The notes beneath the pieces are model-generated. The model was given only the letters and a program-made list of their open reading frames with translations. It had not been told where the DNA came from and ran no database searches. A stretch of 64,000 nt of DNA, from positions 177,878,001 to 177,942,000 of the forward strand of contig OZ024743.1 of assembly GCA_964016885.1 (NCBI GenBank), in the 5' to 3' direction. A program made the translations under genes and the position numbers. Positions 1-63,889 of this stretch are shown here, one piece after another; within the stretch, counting starts at the first letter, position 1; each line of letters begins with the position of its first letter. Source of the stretch: Eledone cirrhosa (taxonomy: Eukaryota).

Positions 1-3000
1 TCCAACTATCTATTATAACAGTTCCAACTATCTATTATAACAGTTCCAACTATCTATTATAACAGTTCCAACTATCTATTATAACAGTTCCATCTATCTA
101 TTATAACTGTTTCAACTATCTATTATAACAGTTCCAACTATCTATTATAACTGTTTCAACTATCTATTATAACAGTTCCAACTATCTATTATAACAGTTC
201 CAACTATCTATTATAACAGTTCCAACTATCTATTATAACAGTTCCAACTATCTATTATAACAGTTCCATCTATCTATTATAACTGTTTCAACTATCTATT
301 ATAACAGTTCCAACTATCTATTATAACAGTTCCAACTATCTATTATAACAGTTCCAACTATCTATTATAACAGTTCCAACTATCTATTATAACAGTTCCA
401 ACTATCTATTATAACAGTTCCAACTATCTATTATAACAGTTCCAACTATCTATTATAACAGTTCCATCTATCTATTATAACTGTTTCAACTATCTATTAT
501 AACAGTTCCAACTATCTATTATAACAGTTCCAACTATCTATTATAACAGTTCCAACTATCTATTATAACAGTTCCATCTATCTATTATAACAGTTCCAAC
601 TATCTATTATAACAGTTCCAACTATCTATTATAACAGTTCCATCTATCTATTATAACAGTTCCAACTATCTATTATAACAGTTCCATCTATCTATTATAA
701 CAGTTCCATCTATCTATTATAACAGTTCCATCTATCTATTATAACAGTTCCAACTATCTATTATAACAGTTCCATCTATCTATTATAACAGTTCCATCTA
801 TCTATTATAACAGTTTCAACTATCTATTATAACTGTTCCAACTATCTATTATAACAGTTCCAACTATCTATTATAACTGTTTCAGCTATCTATTATAACA
901 GTTCCAACTATCTATTATAACAGTTCCAACTATCTATTATAACAGTTCCAACTATCTATTATAACAGTTTCAACTATCTATTATAACAGTTTCAACTATC
1001 TATTATAACTGTTCCAACTATCTATTATAACAGTTCCAGCTATCTATTATAACAGTTCCATCTATCTATTATAACAGTTCCAACTATCTATTATAACTGT
1101 TTCAGCTATCTATTATAACAGTGTCATCTATCTATTATAACTGTTCCAACTATCTATTATAACAGTTCCAACTATCTATTATAACTGTGTCATCTATCTA
1201 TTATAACAGTTCCAACTATCTATTATAACTGTTCCAACTATCTATTATAACTGTTTCAGCTATCTATTATAACAGTGTCATCTATCTATTATAACTGTTC
1301 CAACTATCTATTATAACACTTCCATCTATCTATTATAACTGTTTCATCTATCTATTATAACAGTTCCATCTATCTATTATAACTGTTTCATCTATCTATT
1401 ATAACAGTTCCATCTATCTATTATAACAGTTCCAGCTATCTATTATAACAGTTCCAACTATCTATTATAACAGTTCCAGCTATCTATTATAACAGTTCCA
1501 TCTATCTATTATAACAGTTCCATCTATCTATTATAACAGTATCATCTATCTATTATAACAGTGTCATCTATCTATTATAACAGTTCCAACTATCTATTAT
1601 AACAGTTTCAACTATCTATTATAACTGTTCCAACTATCTATTATAACTGTTTCATCTATCTATTATAACAGTTCCAACTATCTATTATAACAGTTCCAAC
1701 TATCTATTATAACAGTTTCAACTATCTATTATAACTGTTCCAACTATCTATTATAACAGTTCCAACTATCTATTATAACAGTTCCAACTATCTATTATAA
1801 CAGTTCCAGCTACCTATTATAACTGTTCCAACTATCTATTATAACTGTTTCATCTATCTATTATAACAGTTCCAACTATCTATTATAACAGTTCCATCTA
1901 TCTATTATAACTGTTTCATCTATCTATTATAACAGTTCCAACTACCTATTATAACAGTTCCAACTATCTATTATAACTGTTTCAACTATCTATTATAACA
2001 GTTCCAGCTACCTATTATAACTGTTCCAACTATCTATTATAACAGTTCCAACTATCTATTATAACAGTTCCAGCTATCTATTATAACTGTTTCATCTATC
2101 TATTATAACAGTTCCAACTATCTATTATAACAGTGCCATCTATCTATTATAACAGTGTCATCTATCTATTATAACAGTTCCAGCTATCTATTATAACAGT
2201 GTCATCTATCTATTATAACAGTATCATCTATCTATTATAACAGTGTCATCTATCTATTATAACAGTGTCATCTATCTATTATAACAGTGTCAACTATCTA
2301 TTATAACAGTTCCAACTATCTATTATAACAGTTCCAACTATCTATTATAACAGTTCCATCTATCTATTATAACTGTTCCAACTATCTATTATAACAGTTC
2401 CAACTACCTATTATAACTGTTTCAACTATCTATTATAACAGTTCCAACTATCTATTATAACTGTTTCATCTATCTATTATAACAGTGCCATCTATCTATT
2501 ATAACAGTTCCATCTATCTATTATAACAGTTCCAACTATCTATTATAACAGTTCCAACTATCTATTATAACAGTTCCATCTATCTATTATAACTGTTCCA
2601 ACTATCTATTATAACAGTTCCAACTACCTATTATAACAGTTCCAACTATCTATTATAACAGTTCCAACTATCTATTATAACAGTTCCAACTATCTATTAT
2701 AACAGTTCCATCTATCTATTATAACAGTTCCAACTATCTATTATAACTGTTTCAACTATCTATTAATAACTGTTTCAACTATCTATTATAACAGTTCCAA
2801 CTATCTATTATAACAGTTCCATCTATCTATTATAACAGTTCCAACTATCTATTATAACTGTTTCAACTATCTATTAATAACTGTTTCAACTATCTATTAT
2901 AACAGTTCCAACTATCTATTATAACAGTTCCAACTATCTATTATAACAGTTCCAACTATCTATTATAACAGTTCCAACTATCTATTATAACTGTTCCAAC

Positions 3001-3195
3001 TATCTATTATAACAGTTCCAACTATCTATTATAACTGTTCCAGCTATCTATTATAACTGTTTCATCTATCTATTATAACAGTTTCATCTATCTATTATAA
3101 CAGTTCCATCTATCTATTATAACAGTTCCAACTATCTATTATAACTGTTCCAACTATCTATCATAACAGTTTCAACTATCTATTAATAACAGTTA
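1..3195. repeat. 22-bp tandem satellite (consensus TCCAACTATCTATTATAACAGT), roughly 145 copies, runs off the window start
   Basis: Direct 22-nt periodicity. Variants are confined to a few positions (CAGTT/CTGTT, TCCA/TTCA/GTCA, ACT/TCT/GCT). Confidence 0.98.
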
Positions 3196-7702: not shown

Positions 7703-7740
7703 GCCCTGATGAGTCCTTAATAGGACGAAAGATTGTTGGC
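7703..7740 (+). ncRNA. Minimal Type I hammerhead motif at the end of an AT-rich PLE-like 3' UTR (about 6660-7790)
   Basis: gcc-CTGATGA-gtcct(taat)aggac-GAAA-gattg-TT-ggc, then AATAAA at 7742 and (TA)n. Stem III is decayed. Confidence 0.7.
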
Positions 7741-7785
7741 TAATAAAGACTTTTGATGTATTGAATGCTTCTTTGTTTTACTTTC

Positions 7786-7839
<54 letters not shown>

Positions 7840-7994
7840 TTGGAGCTCTGAAATAGCAATATATATATGGATGTATATATAATGTATTTTGCAATACACT
7901 TTATGCTTAATTAAAAGCATTTTGAAGACCGTAAGCTATTGTTTTAAAGTAGTGACAAATTCACTCACTTTGATCTCAGCAAATAGGGGAGATA

Positions 7995-8038
7995 AGCCGA
8001 CAATACTTGTTTCGCTTTGGTTGAAGCTTATCAAGGCC
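7995..8038 (-). ncRNA. Type I hammerhead, U3-A8 core variant (unit 1)
   Basis: Minus strand ggcc-TTGATAA-gctt(caacca)aagc-GAAA-caa(gta)ttg-TC-ggct. GUC triplet; predicted cut between 7999 and 7998. Confidence 0.8.
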
Positions 8039-8310
8039 AACTACCCCACCTGTTTGCTGAGATCATTGATGTTATATTCTTATAGAAATCTAGTAAATAA
8101 TCAGGAGCTGATTATGCAGAGCGGTTGTTGGTCAGGCAGAAATTAAAAATTAGAATTGGAGCTCTGAAATAGCAATATATATATGGATGTATATATAATG
8201 TATTTTGCAATACACTTTATGCTTAATTAAAAGCATTTTGAAGACCGTAAGCTATTGTTTTAAAGTAGTGACAAATTCACTCACTTTGATCTCAGCAAAC
8301 AGGGGAGATA

Positions 8311-8354
8311 AGCCGACAAGACTTGTTTCGCTTTGGTTGAAGCTTATCAAGGCC
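8311..8354 (-). ncRNA. Type I hammerhead, U3-A8 core variant (unit 2)
   Basis: Same fold as unit 1 with stem III loop gtc. Nested in a 17-bp inverted repeat TGATCTCAGCAAACAGG / CCTGTTTGCTGAGATCA. Confidence 0.8.
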
Positions 8355-8668
8355 AACTACCCCACCTGTTTGCTGAGATCATTGATGTTATATTCTTATA
8401 GAAATCTAGTAAATAATCAGGAGCTGATTATGCAGAGCGGTTGTTGGTCAAGCAGAAATTAAAAATTAGAATTGGAGCTCTGAAATAGCAATATATATAT
8501 ATGGATGTATATATAATGTATTTTGAAATACACTTTATGCTTAATTAAAAGCATTTTGAAGACCGTAAGCTATTGTTTTAAAGTAGTGACAAGTTCACTC
8601 ACTTTGATCTCAGCAAACAGGGGAGATAAGCCGACAAGACTTGTTTCGCTTTGGTTGAAGCGTGTGTG

Positions 8669-18820: not shown

Positions 18821-19959
18821 ATATATATATATATAACGGCGATGAATTAGTTTTGCGAGGTTGTTGATATGAAATCGTGTGTCGAAACAAATATTGCTAT
18901 AATTGGGGAGGGTCATATTGGTATAATATTGCCAGAATTAATAACAGAACACACTCACTGTTTGGTTGGTTTTCGCTTTTCGCTTCTGTGACTTTTATAT
19001 CGGTAATCTAATTTATTCGGTCCTCAATATTGCCATTGACTGACCAACGGTCAAAAATAATACAATATAGACACAAACACATATATATAGTTTATCAAAG
19101 TTCTTTCGTTGCACATCTGCAACCACGTCAGTGGTGCTATTGTTTCCTCCCGTTGCATTGTATTTTCTACGCCATCTTTATTTAGTCTGTTTATATATTT
19201 ATTTATTAGTTTATTTTATTTTGTTTTCTTTGCGCATGCGTTTGCGTGTGTGTAGAGTGTTTTGTTTGATGTCTGTTCGTGATTGGGTGACTGTGTATTG
19301 GTTAATGTATTCTATCTTTACTAGTGTGTGTTTATATGTGTTTGTTGTTATTGTGCTTGTGTATGTATTTATTTATTTATTTATCTACGTATTTATTTAT
19401 ACTTCTCTTAGGTCAGTGTTGTTTGTTTAGGTGTTGTTGTTATTCCATTCATTCTTTCTGTTTAGCCTTGGCCTTCTAAGTTCTATTTCACTGGCCTCTC
19501 TGATTTGCCTATCTGCTGGGTCATTTCTATGTTTAGATATTATTCTAATTTCTATGTTGTCTATATTACCGTCGTGTTGTTGTCTGGCATGTTCGTATAG
19601 TACTGAACCGTTTTTTCGTCCTTTTAGTTCCCCCTAGTGTTGGTCTATCTTCTCACCTATGCTACGAGCTGTCTCGCCTATGTATGTTGTTGTCATGTTT
19701 CTGCAAGTACTCTCTGTACAACTTATGCTATAGACTACGTATCTAGTTTTACAGTTTATCCGGTGGTTTACCTTACATATGATACATTTCCTATTAGTAC
19801 AGTGGGTTTTCTTAAAAGGGTACGTTTTGCTGATCAGGAATTTTATGGTGGTTCCTGGCTTTTCTACCACCTTAATCTTTAAGTGGGTCTTTCTCAGGGC
19901 CTTTCTACACTGGTTAGCTAATTTCCCTCCAGGGTTGCATACCACAACAAATAGATGAC

Positions 19960-22245
19960 GTGACAGAGGCACAGTTCACCATAGTTAGAAATAAGATTAG
20001 ACAAATAGTAGACCGGTATACTAAGAGACAGAGCAGACCAGAGGCCCAACAACTTGGGAGGAAACCTGTAGAAGGCTTGGTTAGCCTCAAGCAGCACACA
20101 AGGGATGGTGAGGTAGTATGTCTACCCACGGATAAGTCTGGTAGGATGTCAATCGATAGCATGCCGAACTACATCAAGGCTATGCAACCCCACATCACCA
20201 ACACGAGCGAAATTGCACAGCAAACACATGATGGGATAGAGAAAATCCTCAACGCTCACATGATGATGTGGACCGACATCCTAAAGCCAAGCAGACGCAC
20301 TGCAAATAACTTCCAGGCGTCTAACAATACCATACCATCCTTGTATGGGATCCAGAAAGACAACAAGACAGTCGACGACCCGCAACAGGACCACCAACAA
20401 TCCCATATGCGGAGCAAATATAGCTAGCAAATACAGGATCTCCTACTTCCTCTCAATGGTTATACGCCCCATAATCAAGATGTCCCCAGATGTATGTGAC
20501 AGTACAGAGGACCTCCTCAGCAGAATCAGTGAGTGCAACAAAAACAGGAACATATCCAACTGCATAATAGGCTGCATGGATGTGGTGTCACTGTACCCAT
20601 CCACTAACATTGATTTTGCTGTGGAAAAATGTGTGGAGATCATCATTGAGAGTGAGGTGGAGTTCTGCGACGTTGACACAGAAGAACTGGGCCTCCTACT
20701 TAGACTTACCTACGACACTGACTACCTAGACAGCCATGACCTTAGACGTTTCTGCCCTAGTAGACCTATAAGAGGTAGACTCCCCACCATAACGTCAATG
20801 GCTAAAAAGACTCCCATGGGAAGGTGGATTGGGTGGACCAATGCTATACGCACCCCCCAAAACAATGATCAGGTAAGAAAAATGGTCGCACATGCAATAG
20901 GGGCTTGTATCAAAACTACCCTAAATGTCCACATATTCAAGTTCAACGACAAGATCTCCACCCAAAATGAGGGAGCAGCCATTGGCGTCAACATAGCTGG
21001 CGATGTTGCCAACCTTTTTATGGTATGGTGGGAAAGGAGACTTAAAGATCTCCTTAATGAGAGCTCCATAGACCTCATCATGTACTCTCGTTACGTAGAC
21101 GATATCAATATAGTTATAAGAACATCCCCACTAGAGAGCACTAAAAAGTTTGATTTAGAACGTAGCACAATGGAAAGCATCCAGCAGATAGCTAATTCCA
21201 TACACCAGAGTATAACTGTAACTATCGAGTACCCTTCCAAACACCCTAACAATAGACTACCTGTATTAGACACGGAACTCTGGATTAACACTATAGACGT
21301 GAGAGCCCAAATTCTCCACTCACACTATGCTAAACCCATGGCCTCCAAATACCTGATACTCAAAAACTCACCAATGTCCAGTAGTTCTAAGTTTAATATT
21401 CTGACCGCAGATTTGGTACGAGTGATGAAGAATGTGTCCCGCATGTGCGACCAAACAGAAATAGAAAGACACATCCACACTTCATCAACCGCATGCAGTT
21501 CTCTGGCTACAAGCAAAGAGACAGAGTCAGAGTATACGAAGGAGCCATGGAGAAGTATAAGACCCTCATAGAACTGGACAGGAAAGGAATTTGCCCATTA
21601 TACAGGAGCGAATCATGGAATAGCTTAGATAGGGCTAGACATAAGATAGGGAAAGCCACCTCATGGTACGACAACCAGAGATACAAGTGTGTCATGTTTG
21701 TGGACGCGACCCCTGGAGGGAAATTAGCTAACCAGTGTAGAAAGGCCCTGAGAAAGACCCACTTAAAGATTAAGGTGGTAGAAAAGCCAGGAACCACCAT
21801 ACAATCCCTGATCAGCAAAACCTACCCTTTTAAGAAAACCCACTGTACTAATAGGAAATGTATCATATGTAAGGTAAACCCCATGATAAACTGTAAAACT
21901 AGAAACTTAGTCTATAGCATAAGATGTACAGAGGGTACTTGCAGAAACATGACAACAACATACATAGGCGAGACAGCTCGTAGCATAGGTGAAAGGATAG
22001 ACCAACACTGGGGGAACTAAAAGGACAAAAAAACGGATCAGTACTATACGAACATGCCAGACAACAACACGACGGTAACATAGACACCATAGAAATTAGA
22101 ATAATATCTAAACATAGAAATGACCCAGCAGATAGGCAAATCAGAGAGGCCAGTGAAATAGAACTTAGAAGGCCAAGGCCAAACAGAAAGAATGAATGGA
22201 ATAACAACAACACCCAAACAAACAACACTGACCTAAGAGAAGTAT
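19960..22245 (+). pseudogene. Frameshifted PLE RT + GIY-YIG endonuclease ORF (CCHH-type EN, Cys-rich linker; Neptune-like, clade tentative)
   Basis: Motifs LPTDKSG, MDVVSLYPS, GAAIG..IAGDVANLFM, RYVDD, LPVLD, CTNRKCIIC, VYSIRC...C...YIGETARSIGERIDQH and LYEH, spread over at least 4 frames. Confidence 0.92.
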
Positions 22246-22503
22246 AAATAAATAAATAGATAAATAAATAAATAAATACATACACAAGCACAATAACAAC
22301 AAACACATATAAACACACACTAGTAAAGATAGAATACATTAACCAATACACAGTCACCGAATCACGAACACACATCAAACAAAACACTATACACACATGC
22401 AAACGCATGTGCAAAGAAGACAACATAAACTAATAAATAAATATATAAACAGACTAAACAAAGATGGCGTAGAAAATACAATGCAACGGGAGGAAACAAT
22501 AGC

Positions 22504-57091: not shown

Positions 57092-58061
57092 GTCATTGGA
57101 ATAGTAAACTACTTGGATAATAAAAAGCTTTAGTTGTTGTTTTCCTGCAATATACAGGTTTTCGGGAAATATTAGTTTTCATCAGAATCTCTGATATCCA
57201 ACATATTCGTTAGATTTTCTCTCCCTTTGTTTTCCTATCTTATAACCGATATACATACCCTCTGGGAAATCATATTATATTATCAATGAGAACAGTACAA
57301 TAGGAGGATAGTTGAATAATATGAAATATATCAGAATCAAAACAACAATTTCCATGCTTGAGTTCCTTAAGGATTCTCTAAATACACACATGAATATATA
57401 TTACTTAAATATATAAACTAATATGAGATGGTTAACGAAACATGATGTATCCATATCAATGTCATCCATATCTTCCTCATAATTAGGATGCTGGCGGTTA
57501 TTATTTTTTGTTACATTTCAGTTTAGTTGTGTTATATTTATTGTTTTCAACGCAAAGCCAGTCGCATCTCTGTGCACATTAGAGACATGTTGCCCACATT
57601 TCATTTTTGTTTTAGTATATTCATATTCTATTGAGAGTTTGGGGAATAATGGCTACAATGCCTGGTATTACTATTTTCTGTGTGTGTATATATGTGTAAC
57701 TCTTGATGTTTCGGTTAAGTACTTGTCTACTGTTTTCTTTCAATCACTCCTAAAGTATATATTGTAGAGTAAGTTTCTGTTTTCAATCCACACGTTCTGG
57801 TTATCTATATTCCGATAGTTTCTCACTTTCTTTTAGAAATAGTTTTGATTCACTAAAGTGTGAAAAATCCAGTAGGAGTAATTTAATTTATTATCGTCTT
57901 TGACAGTACTTGGACCAGTTTCCTTAATTTTCATGCCAGGACCAAATCTATTGGCATGGTTAAATCATTCTTACTTCATAATGATTTGTGAGATATTTTT
58001 ATCATTTCTCATTTTTTGTCCGTGCCATTTCTTGCAAGTGAGTATATATATATATATGTAC

Positions 58062-58255
<194 letters not shown>

Positions 58256-58267
58256 ATATATGTATAC

Positions 58268-58324
<57 letters not shown>

Positions 58325-58334
58325 AACAAGTAAG

Positions 58335-58429
58335 ACCCCGACGGCTGAGCTCAAGCCGTTTCGACGGCTAATTCTGTACTGAATGAAAAATTAATTCTGG
58401 TATTTAAATAGCCGAACTTATCAAGGGGT
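58335..58429 (-). ncRNA. Large Type I hammerhead, U3-A8 core (3' pseudo-LTR)
   Basis: acccc-TTGATAA-gttcggcta[...]tagccgtc-GAAA-cggcttgagctcagccg-TC-ggggt. Confidence 0.78.
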
Positions 58430-59605
58430 AATTCCATATATGGTCAAAGAGATAATCACCAGGATTGGTCACATCACAAGTTAGTAGTAAATCTGTGATG
58501 GCAAGTTGGTGGGGGAAGGGGTAGCTAAACCTGCCAGTAGGAGAAAAAGGGAGAGGGGTGGAGTAGACCCATTCATGCGTTGGTAGTGCCAGCTACAGCT
58601 GGGTGTGAGGTCAAAGAGGATACTAGGGAGGGGGAGGGGGAGGAGGTCGAAACGGTAAGTATAACAATGAAAGGTAAAAATGTAAAAGGTACTGAGAGAG
58701 AGAAAAAATAAGCAAAATCTGGATACTAAGACTTAAGTCTCTCGCTATTGCTAGGCTGAAGAAATACATAAATGAATAAATAAACAAATAAGTGAATAAA
58801 AGAATAGATAAATAAATAAATAAAAAAAATATATATATATAATGTAGAATAAAAAAAAATAAATAATAATAATAGAAATAAACTAGGTGGGACGGAAATA
58901 AAGGGACCCTTATACGAGGTATAAGTGCGTGTATCGTACGGTGACGGGTCAACAAAGGGGGGGACCAGAATACTAAAGAGACTACCACGAAAATAATAAA
59001 GGTTTCTACCCCAAACACAGGGCCAGCAACCACCCAGTGCAAGAAAGTAAACTAGTACGAGAATATAATTCAGGGTCCCGCAAAAAAATACTAGTGCTAA
59101 CTCTAAGGGTACCGCCACGAAACAAAAAGTCTTATACAAGCTACATGAAAGATCGTACGAAGTAAAAGAAAGGAACGGAAAATTAATACAGGAACACCCC
59201 CCCCCCCCCCAAAAAAAAGGGGAAAAAGAAAAAAGAGATACTGGATAAACGAGAAATTAAAGCAAAGATGCCACTAAGAAATATAGAAGGCACGGACAAA
59301 AGGGACAGCGGTCGGAGAAGGGGCGAGTATCGGAAGTCTAACACCTCTGCTATAAAAAGCGGAGTCAGCCACATCTATCATAGAATAGGGGAGGAGGTGG
59401 GGTGCTGAAGCTACAAGGGACCGAAGGGCTACCTCGGGTGGGCGAGAAAAAGACGACGACAAAGAAAGGGAACTGGGGTAGAAGGACTAGGGAGGGATGG
59501 GGGGAAGGAGGAAATATAGAGGAAGCGATAAAAGAATGTAAAAGAAGATCTTACGTCTCCATAGGCAAGCAGGGGTTACCCATTACAAAATAGGCAAGTG
59601 GGGTG

Positions 59606-61868
59606 TTATAGCCCTAGTCTACCCCCCCCCCCCGGGTCATTATGGGGTTTGAGGGCGAGGTAAGTCCTACGTAATCGGTGTTTACATGCAGTAACCAGTT
59701 CATCTTTCTTGTTAAGGAGTTGGTCCGTCGAAAACAACATTTGTAATGTTTCCTCCGAGCATAAATTGCACGGACGGCGTCCTCCCGTGTAAGAGTTGGC
59801 TCTGGACAGTAATTTCCAAGTGAGATCATAGTTGATGTTGTTGTCCTTGAGGTCCCATATGTGGCCCGAAAGTGTAGTGGCGTGACGTCGGGCCGGGTTT
59901 CGGAAGGTATGTCTGTGTTGGTATAGCCGGGTCTTGAAGTCGCATGCGGTTAATCCTATATAAGCTTTGTTGGAGGTGTCCGTGCTCACGTTGCACTGGT
60001 AGATCACATTACGGTCTCTGCATCTGTTGTCGAGGGGGCAACTGGATCTATCAGGACAGTTGCACCTCCTGGTCGGCCCTCCACTGCTATTTAGGTTGTT
60101 TCTTCCATCGGGGTTGAGTTTTTTGTTGTTGGAGGAGACGATGTTTTGTGCGAAGTTAGGTGTAGTGCTGTAAGAGAGTTTGATGGTATTTTTGTTAATT
60201 ATGTTGTGGTAGCGGTGTTGTGGTGGGAAGTGTTTTTCAATGAGCCTAAAGAAAATTTTCCCGATGGGAGTTGTCACCTCAGCGTTGTGGGGAGGATTGA
60301 ACCATGTTACATTGCGTGAGCGGCGGTGTCGCCTGCTGGTTCCGCTAATGGGAGCTGGACAGTAGGATATTTCCTCCCAGAAACCACTCCGCTTGAGGGC
60401 CTGGTTGTAGTAAGGCGCATGTTCATCGAATATCTTCTCATTAGCTGACAAACGGGATATACGGAGGGTGATGTTTTTGACCAGGTTGTTGGTGATGTTC
60501 CTAGGATGGTTAGATCGGCGGTGGATGTAGTGCAGGTTGTCATTGGGTTTCCTGTATGGGTAGTACAGGTCATTATTGAGATCGAGGGTAACGTCCAGGA
60601 AATTAACTCGGGTCAGGGACGTTTGTAGGGTTATTTTAAATCCCCAGCCGCGGAAGAAGCTGATTAATTGTTTACGGACACGATCTGTACTACTGGGGTT
60701 GTACCCTTTATGGGTAAGGAGCCCATCATCACGGTACAATCCACGACCGAAAGCAGGAAACATATCGGTGAGTTTGGCTATAAGGAATAATCCTATAATA
60801 TCTGTGACCTCCGCCGAATCCGTAGCGCCCATGCTGACGTCGAAGGGTGAGTCAGGAGCTCTTTTTATCCATTTGGAGTTATCAAAGAGTAAGACTGTCT
60901 TCCTGGCGTGGAGGATGATTTTTCTTTCCTGGTCGGTGATGGGCACAAGTGCTTCGGCGAAGACCAAGGCGGCAGTAAGTAGCGGTAAGGTGATTGAAGC
61001 ATAGTAGCTCTCTATGTCGAACTGGATAAATTTAGTGTCTCGTTTATCCTCCAAATTGCTGAACCATGAGATAACTTCCTGGGTGTTGATCCATAGGCTA
61101 AGTCGGGTGTGTTGCTTGACTTTAGGTATCACGCGGTCTAGGATTTTTTTGCTGATTCTCCCTATGTCGGACTTCGTTGGGTTTATAAGCCTGATAGATG
61201 GTTTACGGTCGAAATCGGATTTGTGGTCCTTCAGTGTGAAGTAGGGTGTCCGTGGGTCTAGGGGTTCAGTGCGGTCGGCGACCCCGAGGCTGGAGGTAAT
61301 TTGTTGTCCATCTCGATTAATGTCCTCGATGCATGAGTGGTTGGCCTTTGTATAGGTGGAGTTTAGGCTGCTCCTGATCAGTGTGTGGTATCTGTCGGGG
61401 TTGACAAAGTATAGGTTCCCAGTTTTATCCGAATGCACCATGATGTCATTGGTGTTATCATACTCTGTTAAGTTGCTACGGAGTTTTTGTAGGAATCGGT
61501 TGTGTCTGGGTTTAACTTTAAGGTTCTTGACCAGTTGGAAGAGGTCATTCTCGAAGGGTGAGAGCAAAGGGTTCGGGGGGGGAAGATTTGTAGGTAATAA
61601 ATTCGAATCTCTCCTTGGTACCGAAGTCCTGATTGTCGCAGAATCTGTCGTAGAAAAAAGTTCTCCATCTAAGTCTTTTCGCAAATAGATCGATTTTTTG
61701 CGTGAGCATCCGAAGGTAAATTTTTTTCGGTGGGATTGGGATGTTCTTGGTAGAGAAGTCGATATTGTGTTTTCGTATGGTGCGGGTGAAAGAAATTGAG
61801 CTTAGCGGAAACGTCTGGATACGGCGTGGTAGGGTCGGAAAGTGCTCTACTACGGGGATAGGAGCTAG
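59606..61868 (-). CDS. PLE polyprotein: reverse transcriptase + C-terminal GIY-YIG endonuclease; one apparent frameshift at the G8 run 61575-61582; start codon unresolved
   Basis: SDKTGN, TLKDHK...RLINP, QFDIESYY, FDVSMG, LYRDDGL, NFLDVTL, YRKP...YIH..SNHP, WFNPP, KLSYS, CNC-x5-C-x5-C, NVIYQC...YIGLT..FKTRLYQH, CNLC..E. Confidence 0.9.
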
Positions 61869-61963
61869 ATAACGAAGGAAATGTGGTAAGGAACCAGGTG
61901 GACCATAACGCACCAAAGTACTCAATACTTAGGGTAGTAGAGTGGGTAATAGGAACAAGTAAG

Positions 61964-62058
61964 ACCCCGACGGCTGAGCTCAAGCCGTTTCGACGGCTAA
62001 TTCTGTACTGAATGAAAAATTAATTCTGGTATTTAAATAGCTGAACTTATCAAGGGGT
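61964..62058 (-). ncRNA. Large Type I hammerhead, U3-A8 core (5' pseudo-LTR)
   Basis: As 58335-58429, with one stem II substitution. Confidence 0.75.
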
Positions 62059-62564
62059 AATTCCATATATGGTCAAAGAGATAATCACCAGGATTGGTCA
62101 CATCACAAGTTAGTAGTAAATCTGTGATGGCAAGTTGGTGGGGGAAGGGGTAGCTAAACCTGCCAGTAGGAGAAAACGGGAGAGGGGATGGAGTAGACCC
62201 ATTCATGCGTTGGTAGTGCCAGCTACAGCTGGGTGTGAGGTCAAAGAGGATACTAGGGAGGGGGAGGGGGAGGAGGTTGAAACAGTAAGTAGAACAATGA
62301 AAGGTAAAAATGTAAAAGGTACTGAGAGAGAGAAAAAATAAGCAAAATCTGGTTACTAAGACTTAAGTCTCTCGCTATTGCTAGGCTGAAGAAATACATA
62401 AATGAATAAATAAACAAATAAGTGAATAAAAGAATAGATAAATAAATTTAAAAAATATGGCAGGTTTAGCTACCCCTTCCCCCACCAACTTGCCATCACA
62501 GATTTACTACTAACTTGTGATGTGACCAATCCTGGTGATTATCTCTTTGACCATATATGGAATT

Positions 62565-62659
62565 ACCCCTTGATAAGTTCGGCTATTTAAATACCAGAAT
62601 TTATTTTGCATTCAGTACAGAATTAGCCGTCGAAACGGCTTGAGCTCAGCCGTCGGGGT
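62565..62659 (+). ncRNA. Large Type I hammerhead, U3-A8 core (inverted pseudo-LTR)
   Basis: Directly readable ACCCC-TTGATAA-GTTCGGCTA...TAGCCGTC-GAAA-CGGCTTGAGCTCAGCCG-TC-GGGGT. Confidence 0.78.
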
Positions 62660-62750
62660 CTTACTTGTTCCTATTACCCACTCTACTACCCTAAGTATTG
62701 AGTACTTTGGTGCGTTATGGTCCACCTGGTTCCTTACCACATTTCCTTCG

Positions 62751-62810
<60 letters not shown>

Positions 62811-62864: not shown

Positions 62865-63389
62865 ATATTGTTACACTTTGGGAGGGTCATGCTGCCAATA
62901 AGAAACACACGCACCAGTTGCTTTCACTTCAATTTAATTTATTAAATATTTATAAATTTACAAATTTATAAATTTCTGGTTGGTTGGTTGGTTCCACAAC
63001 CAGATAGTTGTTTATATATATATAGTCATAGTTCTTTCGTCACACACTCTGTGACCTCTTCAGTGACTGGGGATTTCTTTCTTCGTTTCTGTGCCTTTCC
63101 TTTCTTCTATCCTACGCCATTTTGTTTTCATTTCAAACAAAATGGCGTAGGATAGAAGAAAGGAAAGGCACAGAAACGAAGAAAGAAATCCCCAGTCACT
63201 GAAGAGGTCACAGAGTGTGTGACGAAAGAACTATGACTATATATATATAAACAACTATCTGGTTGTGGAACCAACCAACCAACCAGAAATTTATAAATTT
63301 GTAAATTTATAAATATTTAATAAATTAAATTGAAGTGAAAGCAACTGGTGCGTGTGTTTCTTATTGGCAGCATGACCCTCCCAAAGTGT

Positions 63390-63397
<8 letters not shown>
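62865..63397. repeat. Near-perfect fold-back (about 263-bp arms, 7-nt spacer) of a PLE pseudo-LTR, in (TA)n
   Basis: Symmetric about 63131. Termini GTTACACTTTGGGAGGGTCAT resemble those at 18895, 22735 and 53383. Confidence 0.95.
63194..63238 (+). ncRNA. Minimal Type I hammerhead, canonical core; mirror copy at 63024-63068 (minus)
   Basis: agtca-CTGAAGA-g-gtcac(agagtgt)gtgac-GAAA-gaac-TA-tgact. Confidence 0.78.
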
Positions 63398-63430
<33 letters not shown>

Positions 63431-63519
63431 GTAGGAGGTGAGTTTTATTGTAGTACAATAAAGCAATGCAGATATCGGATAAGAAGCACTCTACAGTTTG
63501 TAGGACTGGAGTATACATA

Positions 63520-63816
63520 ATATATAAGATCAAAAGATGGTTAAATGAGTTCCACATATTTTATTATGCGCATTTCAAAAACAAATATCATCATGCAATA
63601 ACATTTGTGTTTTCATCAGATAAAATAGGAGGACATGATATGAAGGTTACAAACAGTTGTGGTTGATTTAAAACTGCACTATACACAAGTGTTTTTAACC
63701 TTCATATCATGTCCTACTATTTTATCTGATAAAAACACAAATGTTATTGCATGATGATATTTGTTTTTGAAATGCGCATAATAAAATACATGGAACTCAT
63801 TTAACCATCTTTTGAT

Positions 63817-63825
<9 letters not shown>
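63520..63825. repeat. Fold-back (about 127-bp arms, about 48-nt spacer) carrying an HHR in each arm
   Basis: TATAAGATCAAAAGATGG...GAAGGTTA / TAACCTTC...CCATCTTTTGATCTTATA. Confidence 0.92.
63557..63627 (-). ncRNA. Type I hammerhead, canonical core; mirror copy 63718-63788 (plus) has CTGATAA
   Basis: tattttat-CTGATGA-aaacacaaatgttat(...)atgatatttgttttt-GAAA-tgcgca-TA-ataaaata. 8-bp stem I and palindromic stem III. Confidence 0.82.

Positions 63826-63889
<64 letters not shown>

Follow-up and report, generated by a model that had tools for sequence, protein, structure and literature searches.

A large U3-A8 hammerhead in a Hydra-clade Penelope-like element of Eledone cirrhosa, with a likely transcription start in its loop II

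Introduction

Penelope-like retrotransposons (PLEs) of the Hydra clade, which carry a C-terminal endonuclease (EN), encode reverse transcriptase (RT) and EN within one open reading frame (ORF) that bears DKT, CxCX5C, CxxC, CxH and RW(K/R) motifs. They insert into (TA)n, and have pseudo-long terminal repeats (pLTRs), an inverted 5' copy, a tail and a type I hammerhead near the 3' end (Craig et al., 2021, PMC8557442; statements about this and the other cited works refer to the parts of them available to us). We analysed a window of 64,000 nucleotides from Eledone cirrhosa (contig OZ024743.1 of assembly GCA_964016885.1, positions 177,878,001 to 177,942,000, forward strand). The element at 58323..62752 of this window is a disabled copy of a young, high-copy PLE that shares all of these Hydra-clade traits.

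The family differs from the published Hydra elements mainly in its hammerhead. Those in File S2 of PMC8557442 all have a C3-G8 pair, a loop II of 3-10 nt and a stem III of 3-4 bp with a 1-3-nt loop, whereas the family of the window has U3-A8, and its stem II and stem III regions measure 54 and 19 nt. Its unit and tail (3.5-3.6 kb and about 80 nt) are also longer than those published (<3 kb and 30-40 nt), and neither twin hairpins nor a start within the ribozyme is described for Hydra PLEs in the available parts of that paper.

Other PLEs resemble the family in part. The Cercyon PLEs of Schistosoma mansoni (Cervera and de la Pena, 2014, PMC4209133) have in common with it the U3-A8 pair, a palindromic stem III and loop III, and G10.1-C11.1. 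However, their minimal hammerheads have no real helix III and need dimers, unlike those described here; a large helix III is reported in that paper for PLEs of fungi and protists, not of animals. In the Poseidon PLE PAc of Anolis carolinensis (Frangieh et al., 2024, PMC11167929), two internal RT starts 3' of the hammerhead define the tail, as here, the RNA 3' of these starts is required, and uncut RNA is the main template. PAc belongs to another clade, however. Its starts lie in an AC-rich stem-loop inside the ORF, the accessible text describes no repeated positioning hairpin, and only in the family of the window do the insertion ends share TA with the target. Penelope of Drosophila virilis (Schostak et al., 2008, PMC2377424) is alike in starting in the upstream pLTR, in needing a partial tandem and in its initiator (Inr)-type promoter, but that promoter is internal and TATA-less, with a downstream promoter element (DPE) and a 5' intron, and its start is not placed in a hammerhead loop in the parts of the paper at hand.

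A disabled Hydra-clade element

The 731-aa open frame of the element (P0001, minus strand) has the DKG motif altered to DKT (HSDKTGN), which matches the definition of the Hydra clade. Read by eye, a CxCX5C linker (CNCPDRSSC) lies upstream of a C-terminal GIY-YIG EN (VIY...AYIG), with CNLC (CxxC) and CKH (CxH) towards the C-terminus; no CCHH motif was seen in this EN by eye alone, without alignment to reference ENs. The N-terminal RWK motif appears as the variant RWR in the upstream frame of the window copy. RWR is in frame in 12 of 34 family copies, and the RWK form is carried by the L169 family. P0001 resembles Hydra-1_Obim, a match made only by eye. A quick-method RT tree of 51 sequences, drawn from relatives other than the named Hydra, Neptune, Nematis and Poseidon references, groups the family with a sister family at 53%, P0002 and P0018 (support 100). 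Scoring of 7,992 candidates gave 791 homologues, of which the best are 37-53% identical. A pLTR query against the 3.0-Gb genome of the species itself returned 1,771 candidates, which is not a copy number; the 40 that were scored are at 98-100%. Pfam gave no match for P0001 and, on 38 homologues, only weak single-member matches, one of them to GIY-YIG; a PDB sequence search gave none.

Insertion in (TA)n, pLTRs, an inverted copy and a tail are all present, in a layout already known for PLEs: (TA)n, short 3' end, 3' pLTR, ORF, truncated 5' pLTR, inverted pLTR, long 3' end and (TA)n. The features are as follows, with signed positions counted from the predicted hammerhead cut.

58043..58322, no strand: (TA)n target tract, left
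58323..58817, minus: 3' pLTR, terminating in the short 3' end (+17, followed by TA)
58335..58429, minus: complete type I U3-A8 hammerhead, predicted cut after 58340
58818..59605, minus: 3' untranslated region (UTR)
59606..61778, minus: Hydra-clade RT and GIY-YIG-type ORF, start reads ATA, frame broken
61841..61865, minus: bulged hairpin 2, +104..+128
61917..61943, minus: bulged hairpin 1, +26..+52
61952..62457, minus: 5' tandem pLTR, 5'-truncated at about -489
61964..62058, minus: 5' tandem hammerhead, predicted cut after 61969, stem II pair broken (G->A, 62042)
62005..62039, minus: likely core promoter within loop II, inferred start 62009 (from DNA ends and the initiator consensus)
62458..62752, plus: inverted, 5'-truncated pLTR terminating at the long 3' end (+98)
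62565-62659, plus: hammerhead of the inverted pLTR, predicted cut after 62654
62680-62706, plus: hairpin 1 of the inverted pLTR
62753..62808, no strand: (TA)n target tract, right

An earlier, sequence-only reading had called this PLE near-intact, which overlooks two lesions. The start codon position (61776-61778) is ATA, where 33 of the 34 copies examined have ATG, and there is a frameshift in the run at 61575-61582, from which the frame is open to the stop. The N-terminal frame is continuous in 12 of 34 copies.

A large and conserved hammerhead

All three pLTR copies carry the motif ACCCC-UUGAUAA-G...54 nt...GAAA-CGGC UUGAGCUCA GCCG-UC^GGGGU, with predicted cuts after 62654 (+), 61969 (-) and 58340 (-). 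The UUGAUAA, long stem II region, stem III hairpin and GUC that had been reported from the three copies are present as placed, and the reported 95-nt span and 3,629-nt distance from cut to cut (61969/58340) are both correct. The stem III hairpin, given earlier as CGGC/GCCG, is also there, but at 6 bp (ACGGCU/AGCCGU) with a 7-nt loop it is longer. Stem I consists of ACCCC/GGGGU plus a distal extension, and the 54-nt stem II region is closed by CGGCUA/UAGCCG. With its YUGANRA and GAAA core, NUH site and Watson-Crick 3-8 pair, the motif is a type I hammerhead.

Three helices round the core, with helix I open, are the minimum-energy fold in two of the three window copies; that of the 5' tandem copy is not a hammerhead. 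A strict descriptor, in which stems I, II and III must each have at least 5 bp, gave two matches in the window and none in 40 block shuffles, and the G->A at 62042 in stem II makes the 5' tandem copy fail it. Stem III of this copy has a probability of 0.11-0.26, as against 0.67-0.90 in three other copies, at the two shortest of the window sizes used for folding. The folding energy of the hammerhead is unremarkable (z about -1.1), and Rfam at its gathering threshold gave no match in the window.

We compared 97 full copies, a sample that leans to young copies; of subfamily C, only three full copies were seen. U3-A8 is found in 95 of them and C3-A8 in two, so that the core is conserved in the family, and in its non-canonical form. 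By contrast with the core, N7 is free (U in 65, G in 26, C in 3, A in 3). The stems are fixed among subfamilies A, B and C, with a G-C to G.U change in stem III of subfamily B, while the stem I bulge and loop II, apart from its length and the word T(C/T)AGT(A/C)CAG, have been rewritten between them. The fixed differences of the three subfamilies thus fall at free positions: N7, 10.2, loop II and the bulge. Judged by these copies, in which core and helices are kept while free positions vary, the hammerhead is under selection. A pseudoknot between loop II and stem I (AGUA/UACU) was considered and dropped, as subfamilies A2, B and C do not retain it.

A hammerhead was obtained from 53 of 77 metagenome relatives, with a stem II region of 10-25 nt, a stem III region of at most 10 nt, and U3-A8 in two. 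Beside these, the 54-nt and 19-nt regions make the hammerhead unusual in size. The U3-A8 core itself has already been published; the unusual part is the size.

5' ends of sibling copies

The positions at which sibling copies begin provide a potential explanation for the long loop II. Ends were counted on bystander arms, not on the main matches of the hammerhead-spanning queries. Of 96 such arms ending in -200..-23, 47 end in -46..-34, where 7 are expected; these arms represent about 34 insertions, and none of the 47 is an artefact of a diverged loop. Fold-backs make up 37 of the 47. The ten non-fold-back joints are sharper at -40/-39 than the fold-backs, five of them lying exactly at -40. This position is the A of T(C/T)AGT (TCAGT in the window copy, 62009), a word that we take to resemble the metazoan initiator consensus.

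Because the ends pile up at -40, the long loop II likely holds a transcription start. Subfamilies A, B and C retain both the length of the loop and T(C/T)AGT(A/C)CAG. A weakly supported TATA-like word, TATTTAAATA, lies at 62039-62030, 30 nt upstream of -40, in subfamilies A and B. In the nearest Hydra family of this genome, 6 of 35 arms end at -43..-46, at a TTAGT word just before a compact stem I. The simplest reading would be that a start some 40-45 nt before the cut is conserved and, in this family, lies within an enlarged loop II. Given ends at -40, the transcript of the element likely lacks the catalytic 5' half of the hammerhead at its own 5' end, and the only whole hammerhead of an RNA started at 62009 is the copy at 58335..58429.

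A second, smaller group of arms begins at the cut. Five of the 63 arms in -130..+60 start at 0..+2 (four insertions: L037, L039, L333 and L335), where 0.99 are expected (p=0.003 counting arms). Starts at the cut are the footprint expected of cut RNA, suggesting occasional cleavage.

3' ends and twin bulged hairpins

The insertions end at two positions, neither of which is the cut. Among 48 3' ends joined to TA, obtained with a query that favoured long ends, 10 lie at +15..+20, 37 at +97/98 and one at -6, and none is within 5 nt of the cut. Seventeen fold-back loci pair one short with one long 3' end.

Just 3' of each end is a bulged hairpin of the form GCUC-inner stem-2-nt bulge-GAGC-ACU. Hairpin 1 (61917..61943), 5-8 nt 3' of the short insertion end, reads ACUC-inner stem-UU bulge-GAGU-ACU, with a compensatory outer pair; hairpin 2 (61841..61865), about 5 nt 3' of the long end, reads GCUC-inner stem-UA bulge-GAGC-ACU. 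Besides the ACUC/GAGU of this family, the outer pair is compensated as UCUC/GAGA in L128. Of 46 stretches that follow the hammerhead in metagenome Hydra loci, 36 contain the word GAGCAC, where 0.66 are expected, and a hairpin finder returned 115 sense, 18 antisense and about 10 shuffled matches. When pairing was not demanded of the inner positions, they nevertheless paired in 83, 63 and 56 of 85 cases, as against 65, 36 and 34 in shuffled sequences; none of 2000 shuffles reached these values, and the excess appears only with a 2-nt bulge. Across 10 family-ends, the junction falls mostly 5-10 nt before the hairpin. The comparison across Hydra relatives points to conserved hairpins that likely position reverse transcription.

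The same bulged hairpin can be made out by eye in consensus sequences already published (Craig et al., 2021, File S7), at the 3' end of Hydra-2_Amil and twice in the 5' end of Hydra-1_Ajap. In the literature searched, which did not extend to subscription papers or to most supplements, we found no description of the hairpin or of a loop II promoter.

Monomer or dimer folding

It had been proposed that this hammerhead should fold as a monomer. Stem III alone has a predicted energy of -7.1 kcal/mol in subfamily A and -4.9 in subfamily B, compared with 0.0 kcal/mol for the 316-bp retrozyme described below and for three other Hydra stems, so that the family lacks the helix III too weak for a monomer that marks dimer-type hammerheads. 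In a 121-nt fragment the three helices form at probabilities of 0.63-0.94. The part of the proposal that rests on a stem III stable in single copy is upheld by these models, and activity as a monomer is possible.

The exclusion of dimers is not upheld. Stem III and its loop are a nearly perfect palindrome, whose homodimer has 18 bp and -30.7 kcal/mol as against 2 x -7.1, and the loop sequence GAGCUC is retained in 92 of the 97 full copies; because of this palindrome, dimer action is also possible. Stems II and III are moreover built of duplicated arms (CGGCU/AGCCG).

Proposed transposition cycle

We consider it probable, though well short of certain, that the hammerhead is large because the transcription start lies within its loop II, so that the main RNA begins with the 3' half only and a whole predicted hammerhead is present only at the 3' end. 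From the anatomy, the clade motifs, the lesions and the end positions of sibling copies we infer the following cycle. RNA polymerase II would start at about -40 (62009) in the upstream pLTR and produce a capped RNA with a 231-nt 5' UTR. The RT-EN protein would bind either of the bulged hairpins that lie 3' of the hammerhead, and reverse transcription, target-primed in (TA)n, would begin at a UA 5-10 nt upstream of the bound hairpin. The two hairpins would thereby yield the +17-20 and +98 ends, one on each side of the inverted insertion. From the hairpins near the 5' end of the RNA, RT would make the abundant mini fold-backs, which reach no further than the start site; from a downstream tandem unit it would make full-length copies, which would explain the need for tandems. 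The hammerhead would cut part of the time, either in read-through or multimeric RNA or by a strand swap via the palindromic stem III. Such partial cutting would leave a minority of copies beginning at +1 and would be side-processing, the insertion ends not being set by the cut. The cycle agrees with the results of Frangieh et al. (2024) on PAc, which has two internal RT starts and whose hammerhead is dispensable in vitro.

Several points weigh against this explanation. The start site, the cap and the cleavage are all read from DNA ends, the loci are top-scoring matches plus bystanders and no census, and the -40 pile-up could reflect an RT stop or a fold-back hotspot, fold-backs being 37 of the 47 arms. 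In subfamily C the TATA-like word is poor. The +1 signal comes from four insertions, at a G-run beside the hairpin, and the two arms of an insertion are not independent. For the hairpins, the shuffles take no account of relatedness, and the end-to-hairpin tally took only ends with the motif within 25 nt, leaving misses uncounted. As to folding, the duplicated CGGCU/AGCCG arms can also pair in a swapped, inactive way at a cost of only 0.7-2.6 kcal/mol over the active fold, and in 400-700-nt contexts the global fold is without stems I and III.

The sequence-only reading had instead envisaged that cleavage at the two tandem copies releases a 3,629-nt RNA. As the main route, in which a monomer-active hammerhead cuts both copies in cis and the unit, possibly circularised and copied round by RT, is the main template, we regard this as unlikely. 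The stable stem III, the helix probabilities in the 121-nt fragment and the four insertions that start at +1 are what one would expect of it. Circles have been proposed for PLEs and shown for retrozymes in the literature, and a circle would likewise put the hairpins 3' of the RT start. However, starts in loop II outnumber those at +1 by about 47 to 5 (overlapping but non-identical sets), a linear cut RNA would have neither hairpin left at its 3' end, no copy has its end at the cut, and the 5' hammerhead of the window copy is damaged. The multi-unit arrays also speak for copying of a unit, since their members are 99.8-99.97% identical within arrays, but they are no proof of rolling-circle copying because units of different arrays are nearly as alike (99.86% for L168/L177). 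The two-cut monomer is a possible minor route or circle precursor.

It is rather improbable, in our view, that the -40 pile-up is a structural stop or a hotspot of complementary DNA snap-back, and the long loop II an RNA element, for example one making a tertiary contact with stem I. The share of fold-backs among the clustered arms and a small imperfect palindrome within loop II would fit such a stop, and the 3' part of the loop is conserved, as a tertiary-contact sequence would be. The non-fold-back joints, however, are the sharper ones at -40/-39, the remaining loop II and the stem I bulge have been rewritten between subfamilies with no consistent pairing, and the sister family peaks at a similar word outside any loop.

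We give very little credence to the hammerhead being a passenger or inactive relic, conserved through overlap with promoter or protein-binding sequence and through the youth of the family: hammerhead mutants had no effect on insertion of the Anolis PLE in vitro (PMC11167929), 8 of 9 Xenopus retrozyme dimers failed to cleave according to the literature, and the inactive fold is near-isoenergetic, but the subfamilies have fixed differences at free positions while core and helices stay, and +1 starts are enriched.

Translation without an AUG or driven by the ribozyme, an idea prompted by PMC13725137, was dropped in view of the ATG 190 nt after the cut in 33 of 34 copies.

The start within loop II admits one extension, which we offer as a doubtful possibility: a split one-way switch. 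The capped RNA would begin with the substrate half, and the complete hammerhead 3.6 kb downstream would cut either its own site or, through a strand swap in the palindromic stem III, the 5' half-site.

Sister subfamilies and the 316-bp retrozyme

Many frames of subfamily B (87% nt, 96% aa) are free of stops, and the subfamily occurs in tandem arrays with a unit of about 3,531 nt. Near codon 70, many subfamily A copies (L031-L060) have their frame shifted by a C-run of variable length, which may be slippage or assembly error; in subfamily B the run is interrupted and the frames are mostly open. One subfamily B locus (L168, G000:C1:437200537-437213166) is a four-unit tandem array whose search scores alternate between units 1/3 and 2/4, hinting at dimer copying; between the two units compared there is a difference of 1 nt.

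Besides this family, the genome has at least three Hydra families with open frames, giving at least four. The nearest (53% aa; L183-L194, L198, L210, L222) has a natural variant of the hammerhead core, CAGAAGA with A at position 4; its stem III has 5 bp and a non-palindromic loop of 7 nt (17-nt stem III region), and its tail is about 85 nt long. Another has a 38-nt stem II region. A fold-back element in the window (63400-63830) carries a C3-G8 hammerhead at 63619-63565 (-) with a 36-nt stem II region, followed by a hairpin in the ACUC/GAGU form, and is likely the end piece of another Hydra-type family.

What had been described as a 7.8-kb array, with the PLE family as its candidate autonomous partner, is an 829-bp array of 316-bp units at 7833-8661 (-). 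It fits the class of metazoan non-LTR retrozymes, for which PLEs have been proposed as helpers (Cervera and de la Pena, 2020, PMC7229834; Li, Clavereau and Pollet, bioRxiv 10.64898/2026.07.22.740005). In Xenopus, homology links the retrozymes to pLTRs (bioRxiv 10.64898/2026.07.22.740005), whereas the array has no homology to the pLTR of the family. The absence of primary-sequence homology had been noted before and is confirmed: the best BLAST match has E=0.058, in a TA-rich stretch, and shared sequence is limited to the 10-nt core. The retrozyme is dispersed and young (769 candidates; L061-L090, L203-L232) and bears a PLE signature of (TA)n target, inverted arms and two 3' ends, sharing (TA)n and the two-end architecture with the family. 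One end is followed by GCTA-N5-GAGCAC and the other by no hairpin. A PLE helper is likely. The family of the window is not indicated in particular, since U3-A8 is also found in unrelated PLEs, the array is without the twin Hydra hairpins and at least four Hydra families have open frames.

Retrozyme arrays of more than 20 units are found at C1:293.63-293.64 Mb. An older, more diverged layer comprises 2,915 candidates, and these older relatives likewise have U3-A8. In the retrozyme, GAGC is followed about 45 nt on by GCUC, the arms of the Hydra hairpin in reversed order. An apparent clustering of retrozyme 5' ends at the retrozyme cut arose because the unit had been split at that point, and it did not hold up. 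Coding PLE sequence attached to the older relatives was sought at 30 loci, of which four had fragmentary Hydra matches and none was shown to be linked. Back to back with the array in the window, a C3-G8 hammerhead-like motif lies at 7704-7745 (+), near a (TA)n tract at 7789.

Three further repeats lie in the window. A perfect 263-bp inverted repeat with 7 nt between its arms (62865-63397) adjoins the PLE and is probably another fold-back insertion. A large inverted repeat at 19211-22433 has arms of >700 bp (92-96%) and a 1.7-kb spacer, and 145 copies of a 22-bp satellite occupy 1-3194.

Implications

The copy in the window is dead, and its value lies in the cis-map of its family. One caution is that a 'long stem II' can be a DNA promoter and not an RNA structure. 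PLEs are the sister group of telomerase RTs, and how they choose the RT start, why they need tandems and what the hammerhead does are open in the literature consulted. The family offers handles on these questions, namely a likely start within the ribozyme, a pair of covarying hairpins from which either insertion end can be predicted throughout the Hydra clade, and probable genomic marks of RNA cutting. If the split switch were true, cutting the 5' half-site would remove the cap and spare the 3' hairpins that position RT, turning a messenger into a template or circle precursor. Together, such a switch and the twin hairpins would make up a full cis-map of the PLE transposition cycle.

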